Under the pieces are notes generated by a model. That model was not told where the DNA came from. It did not search any database and saw only the letters and a program-made list of their open reading frames with translations. From contig CAVVMG010000001.1 in assembly GCA_963749415.1 (NCBI GenBank), positions 300,367 to 364,366 on the forward strand: 64,000 bases of DNA, in the 5' to 3' direction. Shown here in pieces: positions 6,588 to 61,840 of this stretch; position 1 is the first letter of the stretch, and each line of letters starts with the position of its first letter. Made by a program: the position numbers and the translations under genes. Origin of the DNA: an uncultured Acidobacteriota bacterium. Its GTDB lineage: Bacteria > Actinomycetota > Acidimicrobiia > Spongiisociales > ZC4RG35.

Positions 6588-6661
<74 letters not shown>

Positions 6662-35204: not shown

Positions 35205-36037
35205 CTGACGAGACCACTGGATCCCCGGTTGCCGTCGAATGCGACGATCAGCGGGCTCACCCTGGTCGTAGCCGGCGCCGCAGGGATATTGGCGCTAACC
35301 GGGGATCGCACGCTCTGGCTGCCGGTGTTGGCAGCCGGTGCCACCTTCCTCACCTGGGCGTTGGGTCGTGAGCTCGACCCCGACCATCAGCCAACCGCGC
35401 TGATCGCCGCGCTCCCGGCCGCTGCCTCGTTCTCATCGGGTTCGAGATCAGCATCCTGGTGACCGTCGCCGTGATGATGTCGGCGCGGCTGGTGGTGGCC
35501 TCCACGGGGCGACGGCCACTCCCCACCGATCTCGCCGGCATGGTGGTGCTCGCGGGAGCTGTCTCCATCACGCCGCTGGGCTGGGTCGCCGGATTCGGCC
35601 TGGCCGTTGCGATCTACCTCGACGACCGAATGGAGGAGACGCACAGCGGGAGGGCGGTGGTGGCAGCGATCGGTGCCGCCGTTGCCGCAACCGTGGTCGC
35701 AACTCTCACCGACGCCCTGCCGCAGACGGTGCCCCAGGTGCGACCCCTGCTCACATTGGCACTTGGGGCCCTGGCCCTGATCGCCGTGAGCCGCGACCCG
35801 GTTGCCCCCTCTTCACTGGTCGACTCCCGGCGCAAGGCGCTGCTGGTCCCTGAGCGCTTGCACACCGGTCGGGCCCTGGTCGGATTGGTCCTCTTCGTTG
35901 GTGGGCTGCTCGACCCGACCCAGGCCGTGGTGCTCGCCACCATGGCTTTCACCCTGGCTCTGGCACTCGGCGCCGATTCCGCGGAGCGGATCCGACGTGG
36001 GCGCCGCCCTCGCCAAGAAGGCCCGGGACCGCGTTAG
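35178..36037 (+). pseudogene. Hypothetical polytopic membrane protein, probable frameshift near 35420
   Basis: MWVMAFRSHLTRPLD...LTWALGRELDPDHQPTALIAALPAAA is in frame 1. It continues in frame 2 as ..LVLIGFEISILVTVAVMMSARLVVAST.. with four or more TM segments. No family assigned. Confidence 0.4.
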
Positions 36038-39496: not shown

Positions 39497-41670
39497 TTGC
39501 CCAGGGAAACGATGCCGCAGCACAAAGAGCTCAGGGTTCACGGGGTGTCAGGGACACCTCCGGAGGCGATGCTGTATCTGGGTGCGGTGACCTACGACCA
39601 GTCGAAGGAGCACGCCCGGGTCTTCCGCGAGCGCACGCCCGACGACTACGACGTCGAGGCCTACCACTGGGGCAGCCTCACTTCGGGCAACTGGAAGACG
39701 GCCTACTGGGTGCTGCTAACACCCTTCCTCCTCGCCAACGTCGCCGGGTGGATGGGACGCAACTCCAGCCCGTGGTTCCGATTCGCGGTGACGACTCGCC
39801 GGGGCGGGCCTCACCGCCCTCTTCGTGGTCGAGATGTTGATCGTTGCCATCGACATCCCCTTGGAATGGGCCCACGACACCGGTCACGCAGTAGGAACAG
39901 TGCAACTCCTAGTGGTCGCAGTTTTCCTGGTCTTCCTCCTGATCATCCTGATCCTCTCCACCCAATCGCATTTCAGCCGTCTCGGCTGGGTGGAGCGATT
40001 CAGGCTGACCTTCTTCCCAACGCTTCAGGCGATGCTCCCCAAGAAGTACCGGACACCGAACGAAGCTCCAGCCGAGCAGTGGACCGACCCCGGCGAGTCG
40101 GTGCTCATCGATGGCCGGAACTGGGACGTTCACGCTTCACTGCATCGGTTACGACGAATTCATCTCGCGCTGGGGATGCTGATGATGGCGATGACGGTGT
40201 CGGTGGGAAGGGAGCAGACGACGCAGATGATGGTGGCGGGGGTCGGGATCGCGGTGATAGTCGGGCTCCTTTGGTGGACCAGCTTTCGCCCCGAGGACGA
40301 CACGCTCAAGTGGTTCACCGCCCTGGCCCCGGTCGGCGCTCTCCTGGTGCTGGGGTGGGTGACGCTGGACATGGCCTCCGGTTTTCCCCGAAGGGAGCGC
40401 CTGGCCTCACATCCACAAACTCAACTTCTACAGCGCCATGGCCCTCGGGGTTGGATCCGCCCTGATCGTCCTCGGAGAGGTCATCGCTCGCTTCCGGGGC
40501 AACGCCGACCCGCCCCCCAGCCTGGCGACGGCGGGTCTGCCGGTGGCCGCCATCACCCTGGCTGCATTGATCGGGTCGAGTCTGGGAATTGCCCTTGCTC
40601 TCGTCGCCGAAGCGTTTATCGGCGTCCATCACGTCTCGGACCAAGGCGCCGAGTGGGTGTCGATCGCAATGCTCGGCCTGGTGGTGGTGATGTTGCTTGT
40701 CACGCTGTGGCTGATGTTCACCCCGGTGAGGCCGAAGCACATCGGTTTGATCGGCAAGAAGGGTGCCGGCATCCGGAAGGTGGTCTATCGGGGACGCGTG
40801 GTGTTCTATGCCGCCGCTCTTTACGGCTTGGCGTTTGGAGTGGTCGCCTGGTGGAAGGGATGTTCCTGGACCATCGACTGCGACCCGGCCCGACTTGGTC
40901 CCTGGCCCGAGAAGTGGACCACCGACGCTCTGCTCTCGGTCACGGCCTTTGGAAAATCGTTCAGCCTCGGTGACCTCGCCGACGTAGCCCAATTGTTGGT
41001 GGTTCTGGCCCCGGCCTTCTTCGTTGTCCGCAACCTGCTCCTCAGGGCGCGAGATGCCGACCGGAGACGTCAAATCGGGATCCTGTGGGATGTCGGCTCC
41101 TTCTGGCCCCGGGCTTTTCACCCCCTCGGGCCCCCCGCCTATGGCCCGGCCGCGGTCGACCGTCTTCAGGGTGCACTGGAGCGGCCTGGCATCGCCTACC
41201 GCACGATTGTGACTCGAGAAGACCCCCGCTGGATGGATCTCCCCGACCCAACGGGTGGGCTCGACCTGCTCTCGGCCCACTCACAGGGCACCCTGGTATC
41301 CGCCGTCGCCCTCGACCGCCTCGTCGACAAGAAGTGCCTCCCCGGCGCATTCCTCACCTACGGATCACAACTCGGAATGCTCTACCCGACGATGTTCCCC
41401 CACAGCGGCATCGACGACCTCGTCGTGCGACTCCAGGAGCACCTTCCAAACCGGTGGGTCAACCTATGGCGGGACAGTGATCCAATCGGTGGCCAGCCGG
41501 CGGCTGTCCTGGGCTCGGCTAACTGGCGAGTGGTCACTGGCACCGGCCATTCTCTCTATGAGCTGACCCCCGAGTTCTGCCAGGCGCGGAAGAACCTCGA
41601 AACGCCGTCCGCGACAGGACCCAACGGTGATCTCGCCGATTGCTGGGACCAACCACCCGCCATGTCGTAG
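39497..41670 (+). pseudogene. Large polytopic membrane protein with C-terminal alpha/beta-hydrolase (lipase/esterase-like, AHSQG nucleophile elbow) domain, split by two frameshifts (about 39790 and about 40395)
   Basis: Three consecutive ORFs (39497.., 39825.., 40438..41670) join without gaps when shifted at G-runs. The C-terminal domain ..LDLLSAHSQGTLVSAVALDRLVDKK.. WRDSDPIGGQ.. GTGHSLYELTPEF is a hydrolase fold. Confidence 0.5.
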
Positions 41671-42618: not shown

Positions 42619-42694
42619 GCCCTCGTAGCTCAGGGGATAGAGCACAGGTTTCCTAAACCTGGTGTCGGAGGTTCGAGTCCTCCCGGGGGCGCCA
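42619..42694 (+). tRNA. tRNA-Arg (CCT)
   Basis: GCCCTCGTAGCTCAGGGGATAGAGCACAGGTTTCCTAAACCTGGTGTCGGAGGTTCGAGTCCTCCCGGGGGCGCCA folds as a cloverleaf with the anticodon loop TTCCTAA. CCA is encoded. Confidence 0.85.
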
Positions 42695-42709
42695 GTCCAC
42701 GACTTCAGA

Positions 42710-43636
42710 TCAAGGCCCTTCCCTGGATACCTGGCCCGCATTGGCCACGGCCTGGGGTCGACCACGTACGACCACGAACATGGCCATAACTATGACGATC
42801 GCGCCGAACCACTGACGGCTGCTGAGGCGCTCCCCGAGAAGGACATAGCTTGCGGAGATTCCGAATACAGGGATCAAATTGATATAGAGACCGGCGATGG
42901 CTGCGGGCATCTGGCGTAGTCCGGTCAGGTAAAGCCAGAAGGCGGCGGCGTAGTAGAGCGCACCGGACACGAAAGCGCTGATCCACGCAGTCATCGAGAT
43001 GGCGGCGATCTCGGGCCCTTGACCGGTAATTGCCATGACTACGAGTAGGGCGAGGGCGAACAGGAGAGCGCTGGCTTGTTGTAGGGCCACGACTTGGAGG
43101 GTGGACTCGGCGGCCAACCACTTCCTCGAAACCACCGTGTAGACGGCGCAGGCGGCAACGCCGAGCAAGGTGAGAGCTACCCCGAGTGGTTGACCCTGAC
43201 CTCCTGGCTCAAACACGACGAGAAGAACGCCGACGAATGCGAGACAGGCCGCAAGGACGACGGGTTTGGTGATCCGATCGCCGAGGATCAGCCAGGCGAG
43301 GAGGATGATCATGATCGGCTCCGTTGCCCAGAGGAGAACCGAGAGGCTGGCCGTGATGAGTGTGAGCCCGACCAGGCCAAGCGCGTAGGAGATGCCTGGG
43401 TTGAGGATTCCGAGGAGGCCGAGACGTCGGAGTCCGGCTGGCCAGGTCAGATGTTTGCGGTCGACGACAAGGACTGTTGAAAGCAGGGCGACACTTACAG
43501 CGAGTTGGATCGGGAGAAGGGTGAGGGGTGGAATTTCGGAGAGGGCGCGCTTGGCGATGACTGTGGCGATGCCCCATGCGGCGGCGGCGCCGATCAACGC
43601 CAGAACGTACGGACGACGCGAGGTCGTGGTTGGCAC
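42710..43636 (-). CDS. EamA/DMT-superfamily transporter
   Basis: Ten TM segments with two EamA repeats (..LALIGAAAAWGIATVIAKRAL..). Confidence 0.7.
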   Translation of the reverse strand: MPTTTSRRPYVLALIGAAAAWGIATVIAKRALSEIPPLTLLPIQLAVSVALLSTVLVVDRKHLTWPAGLRRLGLLGILNPGISYALGLVGLTLITASLSVLLWATEPIMIILLAWLILGDRITKPVVLAACLAFVGVLLVVFEPGGQGQPLGVALTLLGVAACAVYTVVSRKWLAAESTLQVVALQQASALLFALALLVVMAITGQGPEIAAISMTAWISAFVSGALYYAAAFWLYLTGLRQMPAAIAGLYINLIPVFGISASYVLLGERLSSRQWFGAIVIVMAMFVVVRGRPQAVANAGQVSREGP

Positions 43637-43791
43637 GGGTCTGACTCCTTGAACGATGGCTGAAGTCGGGACGTCTAAGAACGTCGACTCAGTGGTTCTT
43701 CACCATCGCAAATCGAGTACCCGGGTAGTGGTCGACTACCTCGAGGTCGACCAACGCGCATCGGTGTAGAGAGTGGGTGCATTGGTTTGGT

Positions 43792-44589
43792 CTACGAGAC
43801 CGGCTTGCGCGCCTTGATTATCACCGAGTCCATCCCATCGGTCGCCTCATGCGTCGCAGTGAGGCTCACGGCTTCGAATCCGGCCCCTTCAAGCAGTCCG
43901 TGGTACTCGCTGTAGGAGAGCGCACCGGCGATGCATCCAACCCAATTGCCACGTTCGGCGCGTTGTTCTGGCGTTAGGGCGTCATCGGCGACGATGTCAG
44001 AGATTCCGATGCTCCCTCCCGGGCGGAGAACGCGGTGCATCTCGCGGATGACGGCCGCCTTGTCGGTGGAGAGGTTGATCACACAGTTGGATATGACGAC
44101 ATCTATCGAGTCGGCCTCTAGGGGGATGTCCTCGATGAACCCTTTGAGGAACTCGACGTTGGTGGCTCCCGATTGGTTGGCATTGTTGCGTGCGAGTTCG
44201 AGCATGTCGTCGGTCATGTCGAGTCCGTAGACGAATCCGGTGGGTCCGACGCGTCGAGCTGAGAGCAGGACGTCGATGCCGCCACCCGAGCCCAGGTCGA
44301 GGACCCGGTCACCTTCTGATAGGTCGGCGACTGCCGTGGGGTTGCCGCATCCCAGGCTGGCGTCGGACGCCTCGGCGGGTATGACCGAGAGTTCTTCTGG
44401 GGTGTAGGCGCCGTCGGTGAGGACTTTCTCTAGGGTCTCGTCGTGGCCGCAACATTCCGGTCCACAGCAGGAGCCGGACGTCGCAGCCTTCGCGTAACGC
44501 TCCCGCACTTCCTCTCTGAGCTCGAGGTTGTCGACCACGGTCCACGTCCTTTCATATCGATACTGATCGATGTGTGATCGTATCTTCAT
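43792..44589 (-). CDS. arsM: Arsenite S-adenosylmethionine methyltransferase ArsM
   Basis: A SAM-MT motif VLDLGSGGGIDV, plus the conserved cysteines (..SGSCCGPECCG.., ..SNCVINLS..) characteristic of ArsM. Start at MKIRSH (44589). Confidence 0.8.
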   Translation of the reverse strand: MKIRSHIDQYRYERTWTVVDNLELREEVRERYAKAATSGSCCGPECCGHDETLEKVLTDGAYTPEELSVIPAEASDASLGCGNPTAVADLSEGDRVLDLGSGGGIDVLLSARRVGPTGFVYGLDMTDDMLELARNNANQSGATNVEFLKGFIEDIPLEADSIDVVISNCVINLSTDKAAVIREMHRVLRPGGSIGISDIVADDALTPEQRAERGNWVGCIAGALSYSEYHGLLEGAGFEAVSLTATHEATDGMDSVIIKARKPVS

Positions 44590-44613
44590 ATCGATGGTTG
44601 TCAATGTGTTAGC

Positions 44614-44964
44614 GTGCCGCTGGTGGATGTGAACCCCACTTGCTGTGTCCCGGTGACCGATGAGACGCTTTCGGTCTCTGAGGCTCAGGCACTGGCCGCC
44701 GACTTCAAGGCTCTTGCTGACCCAGTTCGGCTTCGTCTTCTCAGTCTGATCGCCAGTGTTCCCGAGGGGGAGGTTTGTGCCTGTGACCTCACTGATCCGC
44801 TGGGTCGGAGTCAGGCCACCATCAGCCACCACCTGTCGGTGCTGGTGAACGCCGGTTTGATAACCCGCGAACAGCGAGGCAAATGGGCGTGGTTCCAGGT
44901 GGCGCCAGATCGAGCTGGTTTCGTCCGCACCGTGCTGGTCGGCAAGACCCTCTCGATGTCCTAA
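44614..44964 (+). CDS. arsR: ArsR/SmtB-family metalloregulator
   Basis: A wHTH ..ALADPVRLRLLSLIAS..GEVCACDL.. containing an ELCVCDL-type metal site. Divergent from arsM. Confidence 0.8.
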   Translation: MPLVDVNPTCCVPVTDETLSVSEAQALAADFKALADPVRLRLLSLIASVPEGEVCACDLTDPLGRSQATISHHLSVLVNAGLITREQRGKWAWFQVAPDRAGFVRTVLVGKTLSMS

Positions 44965-45599
44965 GAGGCCTCAGGAAGCAGTTCGGCGAGAAGCGCTCGT
45001 ACCCGCCTTTCGAGTTCGTCTCGGATCGGTCTCACTTCCTCGACTGTCTTCCCGGAGGGGTCGTCCAGATCCCAGTCGATGTACCGCTTGCCGGGGTAGA
45101 GCGGGCAGGCGTCGCCACAACCCATGGTGACGATCACGTCGGCGGCCCGGACGATTTCGTCGGCCCAGGGCTGGGGTATCTCGCCGCTGATGTTCACGCC
45201 GACTTCCGACATCGCCGCAACTGCGGCCTGGTTGACCTGTTCGGCTGGCTCGCTTCCTCCGGAGAACACGTCGACTCGGTCACCGCCGAGCTTCTTGGCC
45301 CAGCCCGCCGCCATCTGTGACCGCCCCGCGTTGTGGACGCATAGAAAGAGGATGCTCGGATTGAGCGTTGTGGAATCTGATTCCAGTCTCACAAGGGCGC
45401 GGAGCCGGTCTCGGGCGAAACGCTCGGCGAGCAGGGGAATCCAGCCGCTGGTGGTTGCACGCTCTACGAGCATGTCGAGGGAGTCGTTCATGAACCGTTC
45501 GATGGTCTCGGTGTTGAGGGTCCCCGAGAACTGGCGTTGCAGCCGTTCGGCGGCTTGTCGGATCTGAAGTTGCTCAGCGGTCGTGAGGGCGACGGGCAT
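44961..45599 (-). CDS. arsC: Arsenate reductase ArsC (low-molecular-weight phosphatase family)
   Basis: P-loop ILFLCVHNAGRSQMAAGW (CX5R). Start at MPVAL (45599). Its N-terminus overlaps the upstream aquaglyceroporin stop (45574) by 26 nt. Confidence 0.8.
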   Translation of the reverse strand: MPVALTTAEQLQIRQAAERLQRQFSGTLNTETIERFMNDSLDMLVERATTSGWIPLLAERFARDRLRALVRLESDSTTLNPSILFLCVHNAGRSQMAAGWAKKLGGDRVDVFSGGSEPAEQVNQAAVAAMSEVGVNISGEIPQPWADEIVRAADVIVTMGCGDACPLYPGKRYIDWDLDDPSGKTVEEVRPIRDELERRVRALLAELLPEAS

Positions 45600-46263
45600 C
45601 AGGTTCCTTCTGGCGGTCAGCCAATAACAGATGGGTTGACAGGACGACGGCGAGCAGGGCTCCAATTAGTTGAGCGATGATGAAACCTGGAGCATTCGAG
45701 GGAGCGATCCCGGTGAAGCTGTCGGTGAACATTCGAGCCAGAGTCAGTGCCGGGTTGAGGAAGCCGGCTGACACGGTGGAGAACACGGCCGCTGCCACCC
45801 AGGCGCCAACCACGGGAGCTACCGCAGGCGAGCGATCCTGGTCGACTAAGCCGAGGATCAGCAGCACGAGCACGAGTGTGGCGATGCCTTCGGCGAGGAT
45901 TGGACCCCATCCTCTGCGGTCGGTGGCCGACATTGCCAGTGGCTCACCGAAGCTGACCAGACCTATCGCAACACCGGCTACTGCGCCAAGGATCTGAGCG
46001 ATCCAGTATTGAGCGGCCGTGCCTGCGGTCATTCCCCGTCGAGTCCAGAACGCCAACGTCACCGCTGGATTGAAATGAGCCCCCGACGTCGAGCCCAGGA
46101 CCGAGATCAGCGCCGCGAGAGCCAAACCCACCGCCACTGCGTGAAAGAACAATCTGCTGGCGCCGTCAGCTCCCAGTTCCTCGACGGTGATCCCGCTACC
46201 GACGACGACAAAGGCGAGGAGGCATGTTCCAGCGAATTCTGCAACGACTGGCCTGGCGTTCAT
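45574..46263 (-). CDS. Aquaglyceroporin (MIP family, AqpS/GlpF-like, putative arsenite channel)
   Basis: Two NPA boxes (HFNPAVT, FLNPALT) and six TM segments. Confidence 0.85.
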   Translation of the reverse strand: MNARPVVAEFAGTCLLAFVVVGSGITVEELGADGASRLFFHAVAVGLALAALISVLGSTSGAHFNPAVTLAFWTRRGMTAGTAAQYWIAQILGAVAGVAIGLVSFGEPLAMSATDRRGWGPILAEGIATLVLVLLILGLVDQDRSPAVAPVVGAWVAAAVFSTVSAGFLNPALTLARMFTDSFTGIAPSNAPGFIIAQLIGALLAVVLSTHLLLADRQKEPDARRPHDR

Positions 46264-46909
46264 GCGATCAGTTGGTCCACCCGCCGTTCGACTTCGGAGA
46301 ATGCCGATCGAAAGGCAGCGACTCTTCCGGAGGAGACCGGATCGGGTATCGACCAGTGCAAATGGCGGCCTGCCTCCGGGAGAGCCCCTTCTCGCGCCCG
46401 GTCGCAGACCGAGATCAGAACATCGGGTACGGCACGGATCGACTCGTAGCCCCTTGGAACCGCATCACTGAGATCGATGCCCCGCTCCGCGGCAACTCGA
46501 ATCGCATGCGGATGAACCGTTGCACTGGGGTCGCGTCCTGCGCTAGAAGCGTGCTCGCCGGTTGTGGCAAACCAGTACGCCGCTGCGTATTGAGACGCGC
46601 CGAATTGTGACTGCACACGAACAAGACTGTTCCGGAGATCCCGCCAGCCGATGGCATTAACCCGACAAGCGCGCTCTGCCGCAGGGAGACATACCGACGA
46701 CGACGGTCACCCTCGGACGCCTTGCGCTCGACGACGGCTGCCGCCTCCAGCACATTGAGGTGGTGCGCGAGCAGATTTCCGGGCATCCCCAGATCGGTCC
46801 CCAGTTCTTGCACAGTGAGGTCACCGCCAAGAAGTAGGTCGACGATCCGTAACCGACTCTCGTCACCTAAACCCGAATGGACCCTGGCACGCTCCGTCAG
46901 TCGGCTCAT
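46260..46909 (-). pseudogene. ArsR-ArsC fusion (ArsR wHTH plus LMW-PTP arsenate reductase), frameshifted near 46615
   Basis: The ArsR part (..LTVQELGTDLGMPGNLLAHHLNVLEAAAVV..) runs without a stop into the ArsC P-loop GTVLFVCSHNSAR. The rest of ArsC (..SQFGASQ..VHPHAIRVAAERGIDLS..VLISVCDRARE..WSIPDP..) is in the +1 frame. It overlaps the aquaglyceroporin gene by 4 nt. Confidence 0.6.
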
Positions 46910-46965
46910 TCACACGAAGATAATGACTCAACAATAGTTGAGCAAATATCTCGACACTGAACCCT

Positions 46966-48222
46966 TCACCGACGAACGGTCGAGCCAAGAGGCATCGCAA
47001 AGCTCCCCAACACCGCCACGAGCATTCCTACCGAGGCGAAGATGAATGCAGCCGCTGGACCAACCAGCGTCCAGAGGATTCCGGCGACTCCTGAGGCGAC
47101 CAGGTTGCCGAAGCTCTGGGTTGCAGCCAGCAGTCCAAACGCCGAGCCACGACGCTCAACCGGCGCGGCCTCCGCAACCGCACCATTCTCCGCTGTCTCC
47201 ACGAGACCGATGGCGAAACCGGCAAGTACGAAGGCGATGGCGAGGATGACCGTCACGGGACCGGTCGCAGCGAACAGCAGATACGCCCCGAGGCCGAACA
47301 CGAACCCGATGGTGAGGATTGGTCGATATCCCAACCGGTCAGCCGCCTTGCCTCCCGGTATGGCGACCGCCGCGGCGGCCAAGTTGTGACCGGCGTAGAG
47401 GAGCAGGGCGGTCCTGGTCGCCGAGTCGAGGCCCACGGTCGGGGTGAGCAGATCGGTGGCCCGAAGGATGAGCAGCGTCGTGGCGAGGTTCCCCAACTCA
47501 AAGGCTCCGATGGGAACCCAGAGCCGACCCAGCCTCCCCCTGAGGAGAGGTCGGATTTCGATGCGAAGCGGCCGCCGCTCCCGGCCCGCTGGCCGTTCGA
47601 TATGTCGAATTGCATAGACGATGGAACCTGCCGCAGCGAGACCGAACACCCCCGAGGCGAGAATCGCCCCCCGTACTCCAACCAAGGCGACCAGGCCGAG
47701 TGCGAGGAGGGGACCTCCAACCGCCCCTAGGTTGTCCATCATTCGCTCAAACCCATAGGCACGGCCGTATGTCCTTGGACTCGACACGTCTGCGAGCAGA
47801 GCGTTGCGAGCCGGAACTCGAATCCCTCGACCCAGCCACGCTCCGGTGCGAAGCAGTGCTACCTGCCAGACCGCGGTAGCCAGCCCGATCATTGAGGAGA
47901 AGACTGCGGTGGCGGTGTATCCACCCACGGCCACCGTCCGGCGACGCATCGGATCGTCAGCGAGTACCCCGCCACCGAAGCGCGCCAGTCCTGCCGCTCC
48001 ATCGGCTACGCCCTCTATCAATCCCAAGGCGGCCGCGGGTGCACCCAGCGTGGAGGTCAGGAAGGCCGGGAGCAATGAGGTCGGTACCTCATGGCCGAGA
48101 TCGGCCAAGAGATCCCGACCGATCCCGCCACCGGTCTCTCGCCCACGGCCGTCATCGAGAGGCAAGCTATTCAATGCGTACGAACGAGTCTTACCGGCAC
48201 GCCGACCAGCGTGTGCCGTCAT
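46966..48222 (-). CDS. MFS transporter (12 TM segments)
   Basis: MFS_1 motifs (..GVLADDPMRRRTVAVGG.., ..GKAADRLGYRP..). The substrate is unknown. It sits at the edge of the arsenic gene cluster. Confidence 0.7.
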   Translation of the reverse strand: MTAHAGRRAGKTRSYALNSLPLDDGRGRETGGGIGRDLLADLGHEVPTSLLPAFLTSTLGAPAAALGLIEGVADGAAGLARFGGGVLADDPMRRRTVAVGGYTATAVFSSMIGLATAVWQVALLRTGAWLGRGIRVPARNALLADVSSPRTYGRAYGFERMMDNLGAVGGPLLALGLVALVGVRGAILASGVFGLAAAGSIVYAIRHIERPAGRERRPLRIEIRPLLRGRLGRLWVPIGAFELGNLATTLLILRATDLLTPTVGLDSATRTALLLYAGHNLAAAAVAIPGGKAADRLGYRPILTIGFVFGLGAYLLFAATGPVTVILAIAFVLAGFAIGLVETAENGAVAEAAPVERRGSAFGLLAATQSFGNLVASGVAGILWTLVGPAAAFIFASVGMLVAVLGSFAMPLGSTVRR

Positions 48223-48346
48223 CGCTCGCTGGCGTGACGCCGGGTATTAGTGCGTGAAATTGAGAACCGGTTCGCGCTAAACCTAGAGAGCGCGAAAACC
48301 CTATATTCATTGGTGTCTTCCAGTGTCGGGAGGCTCGAATACACGG

Positions 48347-48394
48347 CAGGTTTCCTAAACCTGGTGTCGGAGGTTCGAGTCCTCCCGGGGGCGC
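48347..48394 (+). repeat. Direct repeat identical to the 3' 48 nt of tRNA-Arg(CCT) (anticodon stem through acceptor 3' strand): att-like island boundary
   Basis: CAGGTTTCCTAAACCTGGTGTCGGAGGTTCGAGTCCTCCCGGGGGCGC is 48/48 identical to 42645-42692. There is no matching 5' tRNA half upstream, so this is a tRNA fragment rather than a gene. Confidence 0.7.
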
Positions 48395-48434
48395 TCACCT
48401 CAACGACAGGTGTCGGGAGATTTCTCCGAACGTG

Positions 48435-49770
48435 TCACGGGCCCACGTCAAATATCTCCCAGGTACCGGGCACCCCTTTCAGGTCATGTCGTCCCCGCGG
48501 TGTCAGGGCGAAGCGCGATCCAATCACCATGTCGCGGACGGTCTGGGAAACAACGACCTCACCAGGGTTCGCAAGCGCCGCCACGCGGGCTCCGATGTGC
48601 ACCGCCATTCCGCTGACATCTTCGGCCTCGAAGACAACCTCGCCAATATGGAGACCGACGCGGATCTCCAGACCGGCGCTCCGGCTCGCCAGGGACATCG
48701 CCAATGCGCACTCGATGGCGGGTGTCGGGCTGTCGAAGACGATGAGGAAACCGTCCCCGGCGGTGTTCATCTCCTTGCCCCCGTATCGAGTCAGCAGCCG
48801 GCGGGCCTCGGCGCGATGACTCTTCAGCAGAGCGCTCCACACCCGATCGCCGACTCCGGCGGCGCGCTCGGTCGACCCGACCACGTCGCTGAAGAGGACG
48901 GTGGCTACCCGCCGGTCGACCGCACCGCCCACCCTCGTGCCAACGAGGAACTCCTCGATCTCGTCCATGAGACCGTCCACGTCGCCGAGGTAGCCCGGCG
49001 TCTCGTCGCCCGGCACTTCGACGTACTGGCCGTTCTGCAGATGCTCCGCCAGCCAGCGCATGCCCTCGGCCGGGATGAAGGGAAGCATCCTTCCTGTGTA
49101 TTAGGAGGGCGGGTGCCGTCACCGATGACAGCAGCGGGCGCAAGTCGATTTCCATCATTCGTCGCATCAGACTGGCCGCCATGCTGGGAGTGGCCGACAT
49201 CCGCTCCAGCTTGCGAAACCAGCTGACGATCCGCTCGTCTTCCGTCACCGAAGGGGCGATGAGTGGAAGGAGGATGGCTTGGCCCCACATCCCCTGTTCG
49301 ATCACTCCGGCCACAGTCTCGAACGCCTCGGGGTCGGGGCCCCAGGGATGGTCCTCATCGGGGGTCGAGGTGGCCAGCACCTCGCCCAACACAAGGGCGG
49401 ACACCCGCTGTGGGTGCAGGGCCGCCACGGTCATCGCGATCGCCGCGGCATCGGTCCAGCCCACGAGAGCAGCTCTATCCATGCCCACGGCGTCCATGAC
49501 CGACAAGACGTCGGGCACCATCTCGTCGGTGCTGGCCTCGATCGAGGGCCGGTCGGAGAGACCGGTGCCCCTCTTGTCGAACAGTGCGACCCGCCCCATC
49601 GCTGCGTAGCGTTCCAGAAATCGCCGGCATTCGGGCAGCTCCCACAGGACCTCGAGGTGGGAAACCCATCCGATCATCAACAGGATGTCGAGCGGCCCTC
49701 CTCCAAAGACTTGATAGGCGAGATCGACCCTCCCTGAGCGGGTGAACTTGACCTCGGGAACGGGCAACAC
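48435..49770 (-). pseudogene. LipJ-like fusion of alpha/beta-hydrolase and class III adenylate/guanylate cyclase domains, frameshifted near 49085
   Basis: The N-terminal hydrolase (..LAYQVFGGGPLDILLMIGWVSHLE..) and the C-terminal cyclase homology domain (..ATVLFSDVVGSTERAA...MNTAGDGFLIVF..) are in different frames. The architecture resembles mycobacterial LipJ. Confidence 0.6.
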
Positions 49771-49966
49771 GGGTGGTCGATTCTATAGGCCTGGCACGAA
49801 GCCCCCAGATAGAGTCGACTGCGTTCGCCGTCACCGCCGTGTACCGGGTCATACCTTCTACCTGCCAGCTCTGGAGGTGTTCTTCGGGGCCCGTTGCCTG
49901 GAGCGGAACGAGTACATCTAGACGGGAGATCGAGAAAGTGTCTCATTCGCACAGCATGATCTGCAC

Positions 49967-51256
49967 ATGACCGCCCTGGCAATCCTCGCCGCGGTGTTCA
50001 TCTGCTACTCCCTCGTCGCGGCTCGTCTCGACAAGTGGTCGATCACTGCTCCTATGGTCTTCGTCCTCATCGGAGCCGTTCTCGGGCTGGCCGCTCCCGA
50101 CTGGCTCGGACCGCTGGGCGACCCCGAAACGGTCAAGCACATTGCCGAGCTGACCCTGGCACTGCTGCTCTTCGCGGACGCCTCCACGCTCCGATGGCGT
50201 GAATTGCGCGAGGACGGTGGTCTCCCCATCCGCCTGCTCCTGATCGGGTTCCCGCTCACTGTGCTCGCCGGCTTCGGAGCAGGAATGTGGCTGTTTCCGG
50301 CCGCCGGATGGGCCGCGGCAGCCCTCGCCGCCAGCATCCTCGCCCCCACAGACGCCGCACTCGGACTGGGCGTTTTCACCAACCGGTCGGTGCCCGGGCG
50401 CATCCGCCGCGCCCTCAATGTCGAGAGTGGGCTGAACGACGGGATGGCCACGCCTTTGGTGACCCTCTTTCTCGCCGTTCTCGTCGCTCAGGAGGGAACC
50501 GGCCCCGAAGACTGGGTGACCGAGTCCCTGCGGGAACTCGGGATTGGCTTCCTAGTGGCCCTTGTCGTGGGTTGGGTCTCGGGACGACTCATCCACGCCG
50601 CCCATGATCGCGGTTGGACATCCCCGCTCTCTGAGCGCCTAGCCGTCCTGGCTACGGCGCTGCTCTCCTACGGCGGAGCGGTGGCGGCCGGTGGGAACGG
50701 CTTCGTCGCCGCCTTCGTCGCCGGCATTGTTTTTGCGGTCGCCTCGAGAGGAAAGCTCCACGAGCCAGTCGAATTCACCGAGGACCTCGGTCTGTTCGCC
50801 TCGTTTCTGGTCTGGGCCATATTCGGGGCCCTGCTCCTCGCCCCACAACTGAGCGGCGAGATATCAGCCACCGCGATTATCTACGCGGTGTTGAGCCTCA
50901 CCCTGGTGCGGATCGTGCCCGTCGCCCTCGCAATGATCGGAACGGGCTTAAGACCGGCCAGCCTCTTTTTCATGGGGTGGTTCGGTCCCCGCGGATTGGC
51001 TTCCGTCGTGTTCACATTGATCGCGTTCGAATCACTCCACGAGGGCGGGATCGCCCCAGACACTCTGATCGATATCGCCACATGGACGGTCTTCCTCTCG
51101 GTCATCGCCCACGGGGTCACTGCCTCGCCACTGGCCATCAGGTACGGGAAAAGTGTCGCCGACGAGCCCATCGAGCAACTCGAGGCCGGAGCGCATCTCG
51201 GCGACCCCGTTCCCAGAGCGCTCAGCGAGACTTTGTCGCCGACGACGATTCGTTGA
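49967..51256 (+). CDS. CPA1-family Na+/H+ antiporter (NhaP-type)
   Basis: 429 aa and 11-12 TM segments. ..ESGLNDGMATPL.. matches the Na_H_Exchanger motif. Confidence 0.8.
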   Translation: MTALAILAAVFICYSLVAARLDKWSITAPMVFVLIGAVLGLAAPDWLGPLGDPETVKHIAELTLALLLFADASTLRWRELREDGGLPIRLLLIGFPLTVLAGFGAGMWLFPAAGWAAAALAASILAPTDAALGLGVFTNRSVPGRIRRALNVESGLNDGMATPLVTLFLAVLVAQEGTGPEDWVTESLRELGIGFLVALVVGWVSGRLIHAAHDRGWTSPLSERLAVLATALLSYGGAVAAGGNGFVAAFVAGIVFAVASRGKLHEPVEFTEDLGLFASFLVWAIFGALLLAPQLSGEISATAIIYAVLSLTLVRIVPVALAMIGTGLRPASLFFMGWFGPRGLASVVFTLIAFESLHEGGIAPDTLIDIATWTVFLSVIAHGVTASPLAIRYGKSVADEPIEQLEAGAHLGDPVPRALSETLSPTTIR

Positions 51257-51335
51257 TTCGGGTAGGGTCGAAAGGCCAGCCATGGCCGCCAAATCACCCC
51301 GATCCAGGCGATACGCGGGGTGCTGATCCATCCGT

Positions 51336-53753
51336 TTGGATGGAGGCTCGCTGTCACGGCATGTCCCTGAGGAGATGAGAATGCCCAACCAACCCGACCG
51401 TCATCTACGCGGCTCGTTGCCGATCCCCGATCGACCGGCCCACGGCCTGACCACATACGACGCGAAGGACCCGGACACCAGTTACGCGTCGATTCAACCG
51501 CTGCTCCCACCCGAGGGGGCGCCGAATGTTCTGGTGATCCTCCTCGATGACGTCGGTTTCGGCTCGTCCAGCGCATTTGGGGGCCCGATCAACACCCCTA
51601 CCGCAGAGCGGCTCGCCGCAGGCGGCGCCCGATACACCCGCTTTCACACCACGGCCCTGTGCGCCCCTACCCGGCAAGCGCTGCTGACCGGACGGAACCA
51701 TCATTCCGTGGGGATGGGAGCGATCACCGAGCTCGCCACCTCCGCCCCGGGCAACAATTCGCTGCGCCCAAACACCAAAGCCCCGGTGGCAACCAGCCTC
51801 AAGTTGAACGGCTACTCGACAGCGCAGTTCGGCAAGTGCCACGAGGTGCCTGTCTGGCAGAGCTCACCAATGGGCCCCTTCGACGCCTGGCCATCGGGAG
51901 GTGGAGGCTTCGAGTACTTCTATGGATTCATCGGCGGTGAAAACAACCAGTACGACCCCGCGCTCTACGAGGGGACCACGCCCATCGAGCCGCCCAAGAC
52001 CGCCGAGGAGGGGTATCACCTCACCGAAGACCTCACGAACAAGGCCATCGGCTGGGTCCGTCAGCAGAAGGCCCTCATGCCGGACAAGCCGTTCTTCGTC
52101 TACTTCGCGCCGGGGGCCACGCACGCTCCGCACCACGTCCGACCGGAGTGGTCGGACAAGTACGCCGGCAAGTTCTCCGACGGCTGGGATCGCCTGCGCG
52201 AGACCATCTTCGAACAGCAGAAGGAGCTAGGTGTCATCTCGGCCGATGCTGTGTTGACCCCCCGCCATGCGGAGATAGCCGGATGGGACGAGATGGATGA
52301 GGAGCTGAAGCCCGTCCTCGAGAGGCAGATGGAGGTCTATGCGGGTTTCCTCGAGCACACCGATGTCGAGGTGGGACGGCTCATCGACGCGATCGAGGAA
52401 CTGGGAATCCTCGAGGACACCCTGATCTATTACATCATCGGCGACAACGGTGCCTCTGCCGAGGGGACCATCAATGGCGCCTTCAACGAGATGGCGAACT
52501 TCAACGGGATGGCCGCCGTGGAGACCAAGGAGTTCCTGCTTTCGAAGATGGACGAGCTGGGGACTGAGACCTCCTACAACCACTATTCGATCGGGTGGGC
52601 ATGGGCACTGAACACGCCCTACCAGTGGACCAAGCAAGTGGCGTCGCACTGGGGTGGCACCCGCAACGGGACCATCGTGCATTGGCCCAAGGTCATCACC
52701 GACGGCGGCAGCATGCGTCACCAGTTCAGTCATGTGATAGACGTGGCGCCCACGATCCTGGAAGCCGCCGGGATCCCCGAACCGGCGTTCGTCAACGGTG
52801 TCATGCAGTCACCAATGGAAGGAACCAGCATGCTCTACAGCTTCGCCGAAGGCGAGGCTCCGGAGCAGCACGACCTGCAGTACTTCGAGATGTTCGGCAA
52901 CCGGGGCATTTATCACAAAGGCTGGAGCGCGGTGACCAAGCACAAGACTCCCTGGGTGCTGGTCGGTGGAAATCTGCCCGCTTTCGACGACGATGTTTGG
53001 GAGTTGTACGACGGGAGCAGTGACTGGTCTCAGGCGAAGGACCTCTCCGCGGAGATGCCTGACAAGCTCCACGAGTTACAGCGTCGCTGGCTGATCGAGG
53101 CCACTAAGTACAACGCCATCCCGCTGGATGATCGCTCCGGTGACCGTCTCAACTCTGACGTGGCAGGACGCCCGACATTGATTCGCGGTAACTCCCAGTT
53201 GCTGTTCGAAAACATGGGGCGGCTCTCCGAGTCGAGCGTGCTCAACATCAAGAACAAATCCTTCTCGATCACAGCCGAAGTCACGATCCCCGACGAGGGG
53301 GCCGAAGGCGTGATCATCGCCCAGGGGGGTCGTTTCGGAGGTTGGAGTGTCTATACCCGTGAGGGGGTTCTCAAGTTCACCTACAACGTCCTCGGGTTGC
53401 AGGTATTCACCGTGTCAGCCACCGAGCCTGTGCCGACCGGAAAGCACCAGGTGCGCATGGAGTTCGCCTACGACGGGGGTGGGCTGGCCAAAGGTGGCAC
53501 GGCGACGGTGTACCACGATGGGAAAGCCGTCGGGGAAGGCCGGGTCGACCTCACACAACCGATGGTCTTCTCTGCAGACGAGACCACCGACATCGGAAGA
53601 GAGACGGGGACGACCGTGTCCTCGGATTACACCCCCGCCTCGAGTCGCTTCAACGGGCGGATCGAGTGGGTGCAGATCGACATCGGCGCCGATGACAACG
53701 ACCACTACATAGACGACGAGGAGCGCCTCCGTATCGCAATGGCACGTCAGTGA
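51336..53753 (+). CDS. Arylsulfatase (Cys-type, S1 family) with large C-terminal domain
   Basis: ..PNVLVILLDDVGFG...TTALCAPTRQALLTGRNHHSVG is the C-x-P-x-R formylglycine site plus the metal-binding Asp residues. 805 aa. Confidence 0.85.
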   Translation: MDGGSLSRHVPEEMRMPNQPDRHLRGSLPIPDRPAHGLTTYDAKDPDTSYASIQPLLPPEGAPNVLVILLDDVGFGSSSAFGGPINTPTAERLAAGGARYTRFHTTALCAPTRQALLTGRNHHSVGMGAITELATSAPGNNSLRPNTKAPVATSLKLNGYSTAQFGKCHEVPVWQSSPMGPFDAWPSGGGGFEYFYGFIGGENNQYDPALYEGTTPIEPPKTAEEGYHLTEDLTNKAIGWVRQQKALMPDKPFFVYFAPGATHAPHHVRPEWSDKYAGKFSDGWDRLRETIFEQQKELGVISADAVLTPRHAEIAGWDEMDEELKPVLERQMEVYAGFLEHTDVEVGRLIDAIEELGILEDTLIYYIIGDNGASAEGTINGAFNEMANFNGMAAVETKEFLLSKMDELGTETSYNHYSIGWAWALNTPYQWTKQVASHWGGTRNGTIVHWPKVITDGGSMRHQFSHVIDVAPTILEAAGIPEPAFVNGVMQSPMEGTSMLYSFAEGEAPEQHDLQYFEMFGNRGIYHKGWSAVTKHKTPWVLVGGNLPAFDDDVWELYDGSSDWSQAKDLSAEMPDKLHELQRRWLIEATKYNAIPLDDRSGDRLNSDVAGRPTLIRGNSQLLFENMGRLSESSVLNIKNKSFSITAEVTIPDEGAEGVIIAQGGRFGGWSVYTREGVLKFTYNVLGLQVFTVSATEPVPTGKHQVRMEFAYDGGGLAKGGTATVYHDGKAVGEGRVDLTQPMVFSADETTDIGRETGTTVSSDYTPASSRFNGRIEWVQIDIGADDNDHYIDDEERLRIAMARQ

Positions 53754-53870
53754 GCTCCGCGTGGCGGGGAAGGCAGCGTCGACCGGTAGACGACCGGCGA
53801 CTGGTCCGCGACCGCCAGCTTCGGCCGATTCCGTGACACTGCGGGATCCAACTGCTTAGGCGAGGCATGC

Positions 53871-54575
53871 ATGACAACAGCCGGTCGTGATAGCGAGACG
53901 AACAACGGCGGACGCTCGCCGAGACGGTCGGCGCGTCTCACTGCCTGGCTCGGGATCGCCCAGGCAGTCCTGCTCTTGGCCTCGACCTGGCTTCTCTCGT
54001 TGATCCCGGGGCCAACGACGTCAGATGAGGAGTTCCTCGAGTTCTACGCGTCGGACAGCCGCCGAGTCGTGGTCCTCCTCGGCATCTACCTGATGCCTTT
54101 CGCAGCGATCGCCTTCCTGTGGTTCGCGGTAGCCCTACGGGTCTGGGTAGCTCAGACCTCGACACGACCACAGGATGCGCTGTTGTCGAACGTGCAATTG
54201 GTGAGTGCGATCCTTTTCGTCGCCCTTTTTCTGTCGAGCGCGGCCGCTTCTACGGTGGTCGCGGTGACCGTCGAACTCGCCGAGACGACGGTCGATCCGA
54301 CTACCGCTCGCCAATTCCCTCAATTTGGCACGGCGCTTCTCCTCGTCTTCGCGATGCGTATGGCGGCCATGTTCATCTTCACCACATCCGGCCTGGCCAG
54401 AGTCCATGCCGGCCTGCCTCGCTGGTTCACCTGGAGTGGATATCTGGTCGGGTTGTTCCTGCTGCTGAGTGCCTCCTTGAACCCGACCCTGGTCCTGGTG
54501 TTCCCTGTCTGGGTCCTTGCTCTCAGCGTGATTCTGTTGCTGAAATCGCAACGGCTCCCGAAAGTTCAGGTGTGA
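53871..54575 (+). CDS. Uncharacterised polytopic membrane protein (paralogue of 27488..28108)
   Basis: Roughly 75% identity with the 27488 protein. It shares near-identical nucleotide stretches (for example GTCGAACGTGCAATTGGTGAGTGCGATCCT at 27688 and 54187). Confidence 0.6.
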   Translation: MTTAGRDSETNNGGRSPRRSARLTAWLGIAQAVLLLASTWLLSLIPGPTTSDEEFLEFYASDSRRVVVLLGIYLMPFAAIAFLWFAVALRVWVAQTSTRPQDALLSNVQLVSAILFVALFLSSAAASTVVAVTVELAETTVDPTTARQFPQFGTALLLVFAMRMAAMFIFTTSGLARVHAGLPRWFTWSGYLVGLFLLLSASLNPTLVLVFPVWVLALSVILLLKSQRLPKVQV

Positions 54576-54582
54576 CCAGCTA

Positions 54583-55269
54583 ATGGCCAACCCTGAACAG
54601 GTCGAACAGCGAGACGAGGAGCTGAAGAGCACCGGATACGAGATCTTCATCGGGTTCCTCTCCATACTGTCCATCCTCAACGTCGCACTGATCTACCTTG
54701 CCGACGATCCGAACTTGGACACGGTCATCTATGCGTTGAATGGACTGTTCAGCGTCATCTTCCTGGCTGACTTCACCTACCGGTTGTTCACTGCGGATTC
54801 GAAGTCCCGCTACTTCCTGCGAGAGTTCGGGTGGGCGGATCTCTTCGCCAGCCTGCCGTTCCCACAGGCGAAGGTGCTACGCATCTTCCGCCTGATACGA
54901 GTCAGTCGCCTCCTCCGCGGCTATGGCATCAAAGGCATAGTCCGCAGCCTGGTCAAGGATCGGGCCGGGAGCGCGCTCTTCACGTTGTTGCTGATGGGGA
55001 TCCTCGTGCTCGAATTCGGCAGCCTCTGGATTCTCCATTTAGAGCAATACGCCTCTGACGCAAACATCACATCGGCATCCGATGCCCTTTGGTATGTCAT
55101 CGTCACCATCTCCACAGTCGGCTACGGCGACCAGTTCCCGGTGACTAACAACGGACGCATTGTTGGAAGCTTGATCATTGTCATCGGAGTCGGGATCTTT
55201 GGCACCTTTACCGGCTACCTGGCGAATCTGTTCCTCACACCGGCGAAGGAACGCACGGGTCAAACCTGA
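54583..55269 (+). CDS. Ion-transport protein: minimal voltage-sensor-like K+ channel (S4-like RIFRLIRVSRLLR plus pore TVGYGD)
   Basis: Selectivity filter TVGYGD with pore helix and inner helix, preceded by an arginine-repeat S4-like helix. Confidence 0.75.
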   Translation: MANPEQVEQRDEELKSTGYEIFIGFLSILSILNVALIYLADDPNLDTVIYALNGLFSVIFLADFTYRLFTADSKSRYFLREFGWADLFASLPFPQAKVLRIFRLIRVSRLLRGYGIKGIVRSLVKDRAGSALFTLLLMGILVLEFGSLWILHLEQYASDANITSASDALWYVIVTISTVGYGDQFPVTNNGRIVGSLIIVIGVGIFGTFTGYLANLFLTPAKERTGQT

Positions 55270-55380
55270 AGAAGGATCCCGGTCCAAGTCCTTTGGCGCT
55301 CTCGCACCGGATTTGAGTCTGGCCGGTCCCCGCAGCTGGGGATCACACCCTGTATTGCTCAAACGGAATTCGGACACCGC

Positions 55381-55428
55381 AGGTTTCCTAGACCTGGTGT
55401 CGGAGGTTCGAGTCCTCCGGGGGGCGCC
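55381..55428 (+). repeat. Third direct copy of the tRNA-Arg(CCT) 3' half (46/48 identical): second att-like island boundary
   Basis: AGGTTTCCTAGACCTGGTGTCGGAGGTTCGAGTCCTCCGGGGGGCGCC has two mismatches against 42646-42693 and no 5' tRNA half. Confidence 0.65.
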
Positions 55429-55525
55429 CACCCGCACCACCTATGTGCCAGCCCGATCGGGGTAGGTTCCGGGACTCGGAATCGTGCCGTGAAATCCGCG
55501 TCACACGTCGACAAGGAGGAATCCC

Positions 55526-56044
55526 ATGATTGGACCAATCCAGGCTTTCGTGATCGGCTTTCCCGACAATGACATGTTTGAGGGTCGGATCGCCGAGGAG
55601 CTGGCCCGTCTCAGTGACGTGGGCCAGATCCGGGTCATTGATGCAGTAGTCGTGACCCGCGAGGGCGACGACGTTGCGGTCCTCTCGGTGTCGGAGCTCG
55701 ATGACGAGGAGCGCGCCGAGCTGCGGACCGCGGTAGGCGCCCTGATCGGGCTCGGGGCAGCGGGCATGGATGGCGCCGAGGCAGGCGGGGCGGCTGGTGC
55801 CTCTATCGACGTCGAGGCTATGACCGCTGCGGAGATAATTGCTGCCGGCCTGATCGAGGACCTTCCTGATGGCAGCTCCGCACTCGTCCTCGCCATCGAG
55901 CATCTATGGGCCGTGCCGTTGCGCGATGCAGTCCGCGACGCCGGCGGGCTCGTGATCTCCCACCGCTCGATCACTCCCGAGGACCTGGTGGCCCTGGGAA
56001 TGGCAATTGGCTACGAGGCAGAGCTCGAGGCCGAAGAGGTTTAG
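55526..56044 (+). CDS. Hypothetical Gly/Ala-rich protein with an internally repeated half (DUF1269-like?)
   Basis: MIGPIQAFVIGFPDND...IRVIDAVVVTREGDDVAVLS... and ...GLVISHRSITPEDLVALGMAIG appear to be two related halves. Family assignment is uncertain. Confidence 0.4.
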   Translation: MIGPIQAFVIGFPDNDMFEGRIAEELARLSDVGQIRVIDAVVVTREGDDVAVLSVSELDDEERAELRTAVGALIGLGAAGMDGAEAGGAAGASIDVEAMTAAEIIAAGLIEDLPDGSSALVLAIEHLWAVPLRDAVRDAGGLVISHRSITPEDLVALGMAIGYEAELEAEEV

Positions 56045-56116
56045 CCGCGGCAAGCCCGCTGGAGGGTTTCTTTGGGATCCGCTGGCTGGGGAAGCACGGC
56101 TACGTCTGAGCGGTGA

Positions 56117-58459: not shown

Positions 58460-58562
58460 ACGGAGCTTCCTTTCGAACTAGGACCCCAACGAACGGGCGA
58501 CTGCAACAGGTCTTGGTCGCCAGCTTTCAACCCTACGCGCCTGCGATCGGGGGTCGAACAGG

Positions 58563-59485
58563 ATGGAAGAGCCACGCGTTTCGGCATCGACTCGGCTGCG
58601 TAGGATCGCATCGCCGGCGGCCGTGACCGCCAAATATGGCCCTACTCCGGAAGGAGCACATGTGATCGACGGACTCCATTTCGCCACGAGCGTTTCTGTC
58701 GGCGGCTTCGAATGGACTGGTGACTTCACCACTGTCGACCTGATCGCGGCCAGCACCAACGCCTTGAACGGTGCCCTGCTGGCCAGGCGGCCGGATCACT
58801 ACAAGCAGTTCACCATCGTCGGCATCATCTTGATGGCGATCCTCGGCGGCCTCGGTGGTGGCATCACCCGCGACCTCTTGGTCGGTGAGGTGCCGTCGGC
58901 GCTCACCAACCCGGCATACATCCTGCTCGCGGTCGCTTTCGGCTTCATCGGATACAGGATCGCCTACGCCGGAGGCCAGCTCTTCCGTGAGGGGATCTTC
59001 CAGTTCATGACCGCCTTCTCCCTGCCCTGGTACGCCATCGTCGGCGCCCAAAAGGGTGTGAACGTCGGTCTCCCGGTGCTCGGATGCCTGTTCCTGGCGG
59101 TCGTCGGCCCCACCGCCGGGCGTTACCTGATCGACGTCACCAGCGGGGTCACCCCGAAGCACTTCATCCGGGGCGAATGGTTCGTGGGCACCGCCGTGCT
59201 CACCGGCGCGGTGTGGATCCTGATCTACTGGGCGGGGGGCAGCACCTGGTTGGCGATGGGGCCGCATTCATCGTCGGGTTCACGTTCCGGGTCGTCGCCC
59301 TCTACCGGGACTGGGAGGAGCCGCTGCCGGCCGGGCCATGCCGGGGTGGTCATCCATCCCGAGCAGCGGCCTTTGCTGGGCCGCAAGCTCCACGGCAAGT
59401 CCCAACAGGAGCTGCGGGACCTGGGCTTGCTCACCGAAGAGCAAAGCCGCCGCCCTCTACGGACCGGCGGGTTCTACCGATTTGA
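58563..59485 (+). pseudogene. UPF0126 / TRIC-like (YicG/YadS family) membrane protein, frameshifted near 59235
   Basis: Glycine motif ..ILGGLGGGITRDLL.. with a repeated three-TM unit. The conserved C-terminus ..AAFIVGFTFRVVALYRDWEEPLP is in the +1 frame (ORF 59084..59485). Confidence 0.6.
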
Positions 59486-59581
59486 GCGAGCGCCGGCACC
59501 ATCGGGCGGATCGAGCGAGCCCGACGGCAGCTGTCGACGACACCGCCGGGTGGGGGAAAAATTCTGCTCACCCTGATCCTG

Positions 59582-61788: not shown

Positions 61789-61840
61789 ACCCCTCTGATG
61801 CGGTCGGCGCCGAAGCTACACAGCCGGCTTGGGCGGGTTG

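Follow-up and report, generated by a model that had tools for sequence, protein, structure and literature searches.

A probable AqpS-type arsenate-detoxification cassette without a linked arsenite pump beside a tRNA-Arg gene

Introduction

How might a bacterium dispose of intracellular arsenite when its arsenic resistance genes include a membrane channel and no linked arsenite pump? The question is raised by a small ars gene cluster on a 64-kb stretch of contig CAVVMG010000001.1; this whole stretch is referred to here as the window, and all coordinates are those of the window. The answer that we regard as likely is a pump-less arsenate-detoxification cassette built around an AqpS-type channel and equipped with two regulatory units. 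As an arsenic-detoxification cassette, the cluster is a well-formed but ordinary example of an already known design.

Five families of transporters occur in ars operons, and the major intrinsic proteins (MIPs) are among them (PMC6205960). In Sinorhizobium meliloti, the channel AqpS stands in for the pump ArsB and guards the cell against internally generated arsenite (PMC6205960), and fusions of AqpS with the arsenate reductase ArsC in actinobacteria confer arsenate resistance (PMC6205960, PMC12838822).

A preliminary description of the window had named six genes: the methyltransferase gene arsM, a divergent arsR, an arsC of the low-molecular-weight protein tyrosine phosphatase (LMW-PTP) type, a MIP channel gene, an ArsR-ArsC fusion, and a major facilitator superfamily (MFS) transporter gene. 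A map of the open reading frames (ORFs) and hidden Markov model scans recovered this set in full, each gene in its expected place, so that the description held in part, three of its descriptive points being off. Its heading counted two arsC genes together with the fusion, which can be read as three ArsC proteins; the fusion is indeed present, but the window holds only two LMW-PTP ArsC domains, one free and one fused. Neither a third ArsC nor a glutaredoxin-type ArsC was found in the window by Pfam scans and tblastn.

The AqpS-Type Channel

The channel gene (45574–46263, minus strand; Pfam MIP, E 1e-32) encodes 229 amino acids (aa) in the sequence as given and 221 aa once a frameshift is repaired. 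Its product shares 44% identity with the annotated AqpS of S. meliloti over its full length (224 aligned residues, E 3e-46), a gene located by a search of plasmid and replicon records (L093:2980–3681) within an arsR-aqpS-arsC-arsH operon. Identity to Escherichia coli GlpF and AqpZ reaches only 25–28%. The nearest relatives are 221-aa MIPs from metagenomes, and three natural fusions of a MIP with an LMW-PTP domain (P0030, P0066, and P0080) are 52–59% identical to the window channel. In the window, channel and reductase are separate ORFs and not a single polypeptide as in those fusions.

The genomic surroundings of the family point in the same direction. Relatives 37–50% identical to the window channel were followed at 82 AqpS-family loci among the matches listed. 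ArsC, ArsM, or ArsH lies at most 3 kb from the MIP gene in 60 of these 82 loci and ArsR is present in 57, while the 10 kb to each side are free of Acr3 and ArsB homologues in all 82. The window itself conforms to this pattern: a Pfam scan of every main ORF of at least 200 aa in the 64 kb revealed no Acr3 or ArsB, and tblastn of the window with Rhodococcus ACR3 (plasmid pREL1) and E. coli ArsB gave a best E-value of 0.28. The identity to AqpS, the natural fusions, the ars linkage of the clade, and the absence of a pump in the window together support an AqpS-type channel, placed by pairwise identity, as the preliminary description had proposed. That description had also named the outcome that would speak against it, a channel grouping with GlpF or water channels and a pump nearby, and neither was encountered.

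The best relatives of solved structure are AqpM, the rice metalloid channel NIP2;1, and AQP1, and the profile match to GlpF is confined to the N-terminal half. An AlphaFold2 model (pLDDT 91.6) displays the canonical fold, with six transmembrane helices and half-helices starting from P66 and P171; its Foldseek TM-scores to aquaporins are 0.7–0.8, and all MIP subfamilies score alike. The window channel and S. meliloti AqpS have the loop-E motif NPAxxLAR in common. It reads NPALTLAR in the window (residues 170–177, about 45733–45756 on the minus strand) and NPA-[VL]-x-L-A-R across the AqpS clade, with valine or leucine at the position of the canonical NPAR arginine and an invariant arginine, R177, four residues later. 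The window channel lacks the arginine that directly follows the second NPA in a GlpF-type selectivity filter, and the alignment shows no GlpF loop-C insertion. Since a hydrophobic residue occupies the NPAR arginine position and the half-helix starts at P171, the selectivity filter of the clade is probably non-canonical. Because the conserved arginine is displaced by four residues, pore properties of the clade should not be transferred from GlpF.

Reduction and Methylation

The free reductase gene (44961–45599, minus strand, 212 aa; Pfam Phosphatase-like_N and LMWPc) encodes an N-terminal three-helix-bundle domain followed by an LMW-PTP domain. Over 190 residues (15–204) the protein aligns with PDB 3t38 (E 4.9e-50), presumably the thioredoxin-dependent Cg_ArsC1', and both its P-loop, CVHNAGRS, and its cysteine pair, GCGDAC, fall into register with that structure. 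Cg_ArsC1' belongs to the thioredoxin-dependent class (PMC6514093). Between the free ArsC and the ArsC part of the natural fusion P0030, identity is 64%, and CVHNAGRS and GCGDxC are common to both. By its sequence it appears to be a Cg_ArsC1'-type, thioredoxin-class reductase, which would make thioredoxin its probable partner.

Upstream of the channel lies the ArsR-ArsC fusion gene (46260–46909, minus strand), whose repaired product of 216 aa spans the Pfam profiles HTH_5 and LMWPc end to end. Actinobacteria are known to have a class of such fusions (PMC6205960, PMC6514093). In an alignment of the family, the helix-turn-helix (HTH) half contains no cysteine, and the LMW-PTP half keeps the CX5R-S signature and one further cysteine. 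Fusion, channel, and free reductase genes are packed closely: the repaired stop codon of the MIP gene (45599–45601) overlaps the ArsC start codon by one base, and the core operon of these three genes, with overlapping gene ends, is kept in the related loci L002 and L094.

The methyltransferase gene arsM (43792–44538, minus strand, 248 aa) starts with GTG at 44538, with GAAAGGA ahead of it. Its product scores 299.4 bits against the NCBIfam model NF008823, "arsenite methyltransferase" (cut-off 263), and contains an S-adenosylmethionine-binding Rossmann domain (Methyltransf_31, E 4e-34). The loss of the three catalytic cysteines, which would have undone the annotation, is not seen: C64, C152, and C202 align with C72, C174, and C224 of CmArsM (PDB 4fr0/4kw7). 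An additional CCxxxCC cluster (C24/25/29/30) lies in the N-terminal region and has no residue-level alignment to C44. The combination of arsM, arsR, MIP, and ArsC genes is not unique to this locus, since Streptomyces and Peterkaempfera loci (L046, L073, and L076) carry the same set together.

Two Candidate Operator Types

The divergent arsR (44614–44964, plus strand) encodes an ArsR/SmtB repressor of 116 aa, recognized by Pfam HTH_5 and by the NCBIfam model HTH_metalloreg above its cut-off; its end overlaps that of the ArsC1'-type gene by 4 nucleotides (nt). The best match in the PDB is 6j0e (E 1e-17), which we take to be the ArsR of Corynebacterium glutamicum. The repressor has an N-terminal cysteine pair (C10-C11), as in 6j0e, together with a CxC (C55/C57 in EVCACDL) at the corresponding position of R773-type ArsR. 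Definitions of the As(III) sites of the ArsR types are available in PMC4562236.

Between arsM and arsR lies a spacer of 75 nt (44539–44613). The preliminary description had seen inverted repeats centered on ATCGAT there and had guessed at an ArsR operator. The ATCGAT strings are present, but the spacer is better described as carrying two tandem 20-bp imperfect inverted repeats of the form ATATCGA-N6-TCRATGT, at 44554–44573 and 44588–44607, with centers 34 bp apart. Only 0.11 matches to this motif would be expected by chance in the whole window. The guess at an operator is backed by phylogenetic footprinting: in 13 of 17 loci an arsR homologue is preceded by the motif, and the 2,890 nt ahead of these genes, 0.18% of the 1.62 Mb searched, hold 16 of the 35 matches. 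A promoter scan further indicated that the two candidate operators overlap a promoter-like site facing arsM, with a −35 element TTGACA at 44604–44599 and a −10 element TACGAT ending at 44577.

The fusion gene has a candidate leaderless promoter of its own (46917–46945, minus strand), in which TTGCTC, 17 nt, TATCTT, and 7 nt precede the ATG. Within it lies the palindrome CTCAAC-N4-GTTGAG (46927–46942), that is, CTCAA-N6-TTGAG, and CTCAA-N4-7-TTGAG occurs only this once in the window. The motif is kept upstream of the ArsR-ArsC fusion genes of L001, L002, L045, L068, L010, and L081, and homology to L001 and L002 stops at 46945. Pattern search and conservation thus point to a candidate operator of the ArsR-ArsC fusion.

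Proposed Mechanism

These elements suggest a route in two units. In the first, a minus-strand operon, the ArsR-ArsC fusion, the AqpS-family channel, and the Cg_ArsC1'-type reductase would be transcribed together across their stop/start overlaps, from a probably leaderless promoter containing the CTCAA-N6-TTGAG palindrome. Arsenate entering through phosphate transporters would be reduced by the thioredoxin-class LMW-PTP reductase, and the resulting As(OH)3 would leave through the channel down its own gradient, as no ArsB or Acr3 pump is linked to the operon. The second unit would comprise the divergent arsR and arsM, perhaps with the EamA transporter gene downstream of arsM. Here, ArsR would bind the two ATATCGA-N6-TCRATGT sites overlapping the arsM promoter; As(III) would release the repressor, which carries cysteines of the As(III)-binding type. 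The methylation of As(III) by ArsM would follow, yielding species that are volatile or less well retained.

Several points weigh against this scheme. Transport, reduction, and methylation are read here from sequence alone, and the proposed pairing of each of the two repressors with its palindrome is drawn only from position and conservation. The AqpS clade, in which the canonical NPAR position is not occupied by arginine, is far in sequence from the GlpF-type aquaglyceroporins. A gene for Acr3 or ArsB may lie in the genome outside the 64 kb. Finally, frameshifts affect the fusion gene as well as the MIP gene at its 3' end in the sequence as given, and this last point opens the first of three competing explanations.

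Alternative Explanations

The fusion is a real gene, as the preliminary description had it, but it is not one ORF in the given sequence: a 1-nt deletion near 46594 splits it into two overlapping ORFs in different frames, 46415–46909 and 46260–46616, of which the first matches Pfam HTH_5 and the second LMWPc. A second 1-nt deletion, at about 45607 in an A-run, affects the 3' end of the MIP gene, and both deletions stand out against L001, L002, and L094. If they were real, the operon would be dead and the cluster a decaying, non-functional remnant, a reading that we consider improbable. The locus L094, 98.6% identical to the window over 42707–46993, has an intact 216-aa fusion, matching the repaired window ORF at 215 of 216 residues, and an intact 221-aa MIP, yet its arsM is truncated by single-base differences of its own. 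Other genes of the window are equally affected: frame changes against the L002 orthologues affect at least three (PhzF and genes of 767 aa and 274 aa), and the CLC/CBS gene and the LipJ-like gene are broken up as well. Each deletion shortens a small run of one base (AAA to AA, TT to T), which fits long-read assembly error, and the indel in the MIP gene alters only the last few residues of the protein. Because L094 is intact and has different indels, and because further window genes are split in the same way, the two frameshifts are almost certainly assembly indels, probably of the long-read type, and not signs of pseudogenes. Apparent pseudogenes in this assembly should accordingly not be taken at face value, given how frequent single-base indels are.

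Sites of split genes in the window lie at 33044–35204, 35187–35986, 39497–41670, 48435–49770, and 61847–62606, in addition to those at about 45607 and about 46594. Programmed frameshifting of the fusion gene was also considered and ruled out, as the shift is missing in three relatives and similar indels recur across other genes.

A second explanation concerns the MFS gene (46966–48222, minus strand), for which the preliminary description had cautiously suggested an exporter of organoarsenicals like ArsJ or ArsK. Were it a true arsenical exporter, the system would not be pump-less and the channel would be an accessory. The gene immediately precedes the fusion gene on their common strand and shares its repeat-bounded cassette, and MFS exporters of arsenicals, ArsJ and ArsK, do exist (PMC6205960). 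The suggestion nevertheless fared poorly, and we judge such a role quite improbable. The protein matches generic models only (Pfam MFS_1); its NCBIfam hits all fall below the cut-offs and include no ArsJ-named or other arsenical family, with the proviso that an ArsK model may not be in the library. The GAPDH gene that partners ArsJ is not present either. Its orthologues (88, 78, and 65% identity) occupy three unrelated contexts without ars genes, and the gene is missing from L094, L001, and L002, all of which keep the ars operon. Neither of the two palindrome types occurs upstream of it, and no MFS homologue was found near the MIP gene in the 82 loci among the matches listed. The MFS gene is probably a passenger within the cassette and not part of the ars system.

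Most homologues of this protein have 369–423 aa, and the alignment starts at residue 35. Upstream of the gene, at 48264–48273, there is a perfect 10-bp palindrome, GAACCGGTTC, which may be the operator of an unrelated regulator. The presence of the gene in the window and its absence from L094 (window 46993–48256 against L094 94–239) looks like the gain or loss of a single gene beside an attachment (att)-like repeat.

The last alternative, that the channel is an ordinary water or glycerol channel placed by chance among ars genes or mainly an uptake route for arsenite, can draw on the bidirectionality of MIP channels, on arsenite uptake by GlpF, and on the sensitivity to external arsenite that AqpS gives S. 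meliloti (PMC6205960), but it is highly improbable for a gene that shares stop/start overlaps with its ars neighbors on both sides, whose clade is so often ars-linked (60 of the 82 listed loci) and fused to ArsC in nature, and which shows such low identity to GlpF and AqpZ and matches the GlpF profile in its N-terminal half only.

A Repeat-Bounded Cassette

The preliminary description called the cluster an island, and this is borne out by direct repeats derived from a tRNA gene, which it had not seen. ARAGORN places a tRNA-Arg(CCT) gene at 42619–42694 on the plus strand. The 3' 48 nt of this gene (42645–42692), spanning anticodon stem through 3' end, are found again as a perfect 48/48 copy at 48347–48394 and, with two mismatches (46/48), at 55380–55427, both on the plus strand; zero matches would be expected by chance. 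Because of this recurrence at 48347–48394, the ars genes, the EamA gene, and the MFS gene form a 5.7-kb block bounded by att-like repeats. No degenerate att copies exist inside the cassette, for example between arsR and the ArsC gene.

The EamA/DMT-family transporter gene (42710–43636, minus strand; Pfam EamA, E 7.6e-39) was not in the gene set of the preliminary description. A gap of 155 nt, in which no terminator-like site was seen, separates it from arsM, which lies upstream on the same strand; it is the next gene after arsM in the window, L001, and L094. This linkage says little, since the three are close relatives.

A second cassette (48395–55379), closed by the third repeat copy, carries LipJ-like, Na+/H+ exchanger, sulfatase, and ion-channel genes according to Pfam. 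The variable region as a whole extends over 19 kb from the tRNA-Arg gene to PhzF/WS_DGAT, differs between the window, L001, L002, and L087, and has a GC content of 62.2% against 64.9% in the core. In L002, the flanking genes are syntenic with those of the window, the tRNA gene lies at 11311–11384, and partial copies lie at 9114–9151 and 6570–6607; there, a minimal 2.2-kb block of ArsR-ArsC fusion, MIP, and ArsC1'-type genes adjoins the tRNA gene. No flanking repeats were found around the L001 copy. Pfam revealed no recombinase or transposase family in the main ORFs of 42695–61847, where frameshift errors could hide fragments; the only gap in the ORF scan, 55428–56116, is too small for a recombinase. 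The cassette resembles one of several tandem units of a strain-variable, tRNA-anchored flexible island without an integrase of its own.

The att core had no match in viral contigs. In JGI metagenome contigs it identified 35 tRNA-Arg genes, none with ars genes, and a second copy was found only in L100.

Further observations were made on the repeats and their surroundings. In the unrelated metagenome contig L100 (5439–7620), the same tRNA-Arg gene is followed 2.1 kb downstream by the second 3' core, and this integrase-less block encloses only a gene for a 634-aa membrane protein. A stretch of about 90 nt just inside the right repeat (window 48256–48369) is 84% conserved and occurs twice in L094 (1–93 and 6000–6113), beside partial tRNA copies; it may be an element-borne arm of an attachment site. 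In the second cassette, 48435–55269 (Na+/H+ exchanger, arylsulfatase, and a 234-aa protein) is 90% identical to L087 12954–17212, a segment that adjoins an orthologue of the MFS gene and in which order and orientation differ from those of the window.

Comparison with Known Systems

The closest parallel is the S. meliloti arsR-aqpS-arsC-arsH operon (Yang et al. 2005, via PMC6205960), which has a channel of the same clade in an operon with ArsR and a reductase and, as far as that account goes, no linked ArsB or Acr3. Its ArsC is of the glutaredoxin type, whereas that of the window belongs to the LMW-PTP/thioredoxin class and has an extra N-terminal domain. The window differs further in that the first gene of its operon is an ArsR-ArsC fusion, arsH is absent, and a divergent arsR-arsM pair is attached. 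The channel-ArsC fusions of Frankia alni and Salinispora tropica (Wu, Song & Beitz 2010, via PMC6205960 and PMC12838822), to the extent that these accounts describe them, share the channel clade, the ArsC subtype, and the host phylum. In the window, the two genes are separate and the free ArsC keeps the three-helix-bundle N-terminal domain that the fusions lack.

The reductase type and the fusion class of the window are also those of Cg_ArsC1' of C. glutamicum and of the ArsR-ArsC fusions of Microbacterium A33 and Rhodococcus (PMC6514093). The systems of Corynebacterium, Microbacterium, and Rhodococcus use Acr3 as the exit, while the window has an AqpS channel between its fusion and ArsC1'-type genes. 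The window fusion gene resembles the gene with HTH and LMW-PTP domains that precedes an ArsC1'-type gene on plasmid pREL1 of Rhodococcus erythropolis. On that plasmid (L086, 5270–6630), a 230-aa gene annotated "helix-turn-helix" aligns with the ArsR-ArsC fusions and overlaps the start of the ArsC1'-type gene, so the pair of fusion and ArsC1' also exists without a channel, beside an Acr3 operon.

As a mobile arrangement, the cassette is comparable to the tycheposon-shaped islands of Prochlorococcus (bioRxiv 10.1101/2020.12.28.424599), with which it shares a full tRNA gene at one of its ends, tRNA fragments of about 40–48 nt between tandem blocks of niche cargo, and variable content. It differs from them in that the 19-kb region has no integrase, replication, or packaging gene and in that the host is probably a member of the Acidimicrobiia, as the source names of related MFS and MIP proteins suggest, and not a cyanobacterium. 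Homology to the hallmark genes of tycheposons did not come to light, though no search aimed at it was made.

Two more speculative ideas may be added. The ArsR-ArsC fusion is unable to sense As(III) in the manner of ArsR, because its HTH domain is without any cysteine; its signal could be arsenate, or else how oxidized or reduced the P-loop cysteine of its own LMW-PTP domain is, and the response a release of CTCAA-N6-TTGAG. It would then be a new kind of sensor. Independently of this, the cassette, without an integrase of its own, could be movable by trans-acting recombination at the tRNA-Arg repeats. Taken jointly, these two proposals are doubtful. If the first were true, arsenate would directly switch on the operon that reduces arsenate and lets arsenite leak out, and the cysteine-rich ArsR would run a methylation unit driven by As(III).

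Conclusions

The current picture of arsenic resistance is left unchanged by this locus, which adds to it a clean, unfused AqpS-type example from an actinobacterium that is probably Acidimicrobiia-like. Among the loci surveyed, the AqpS clade never shares a locus with Acr3 or ArsB, in support of the view that the pump is replaced by the channel. Candidate operator motifs are supplied for two different ArsR-type regulators, and the operon is seen to travel as a small, repeat-bounded cassette beside a tRNA-Arg gene.

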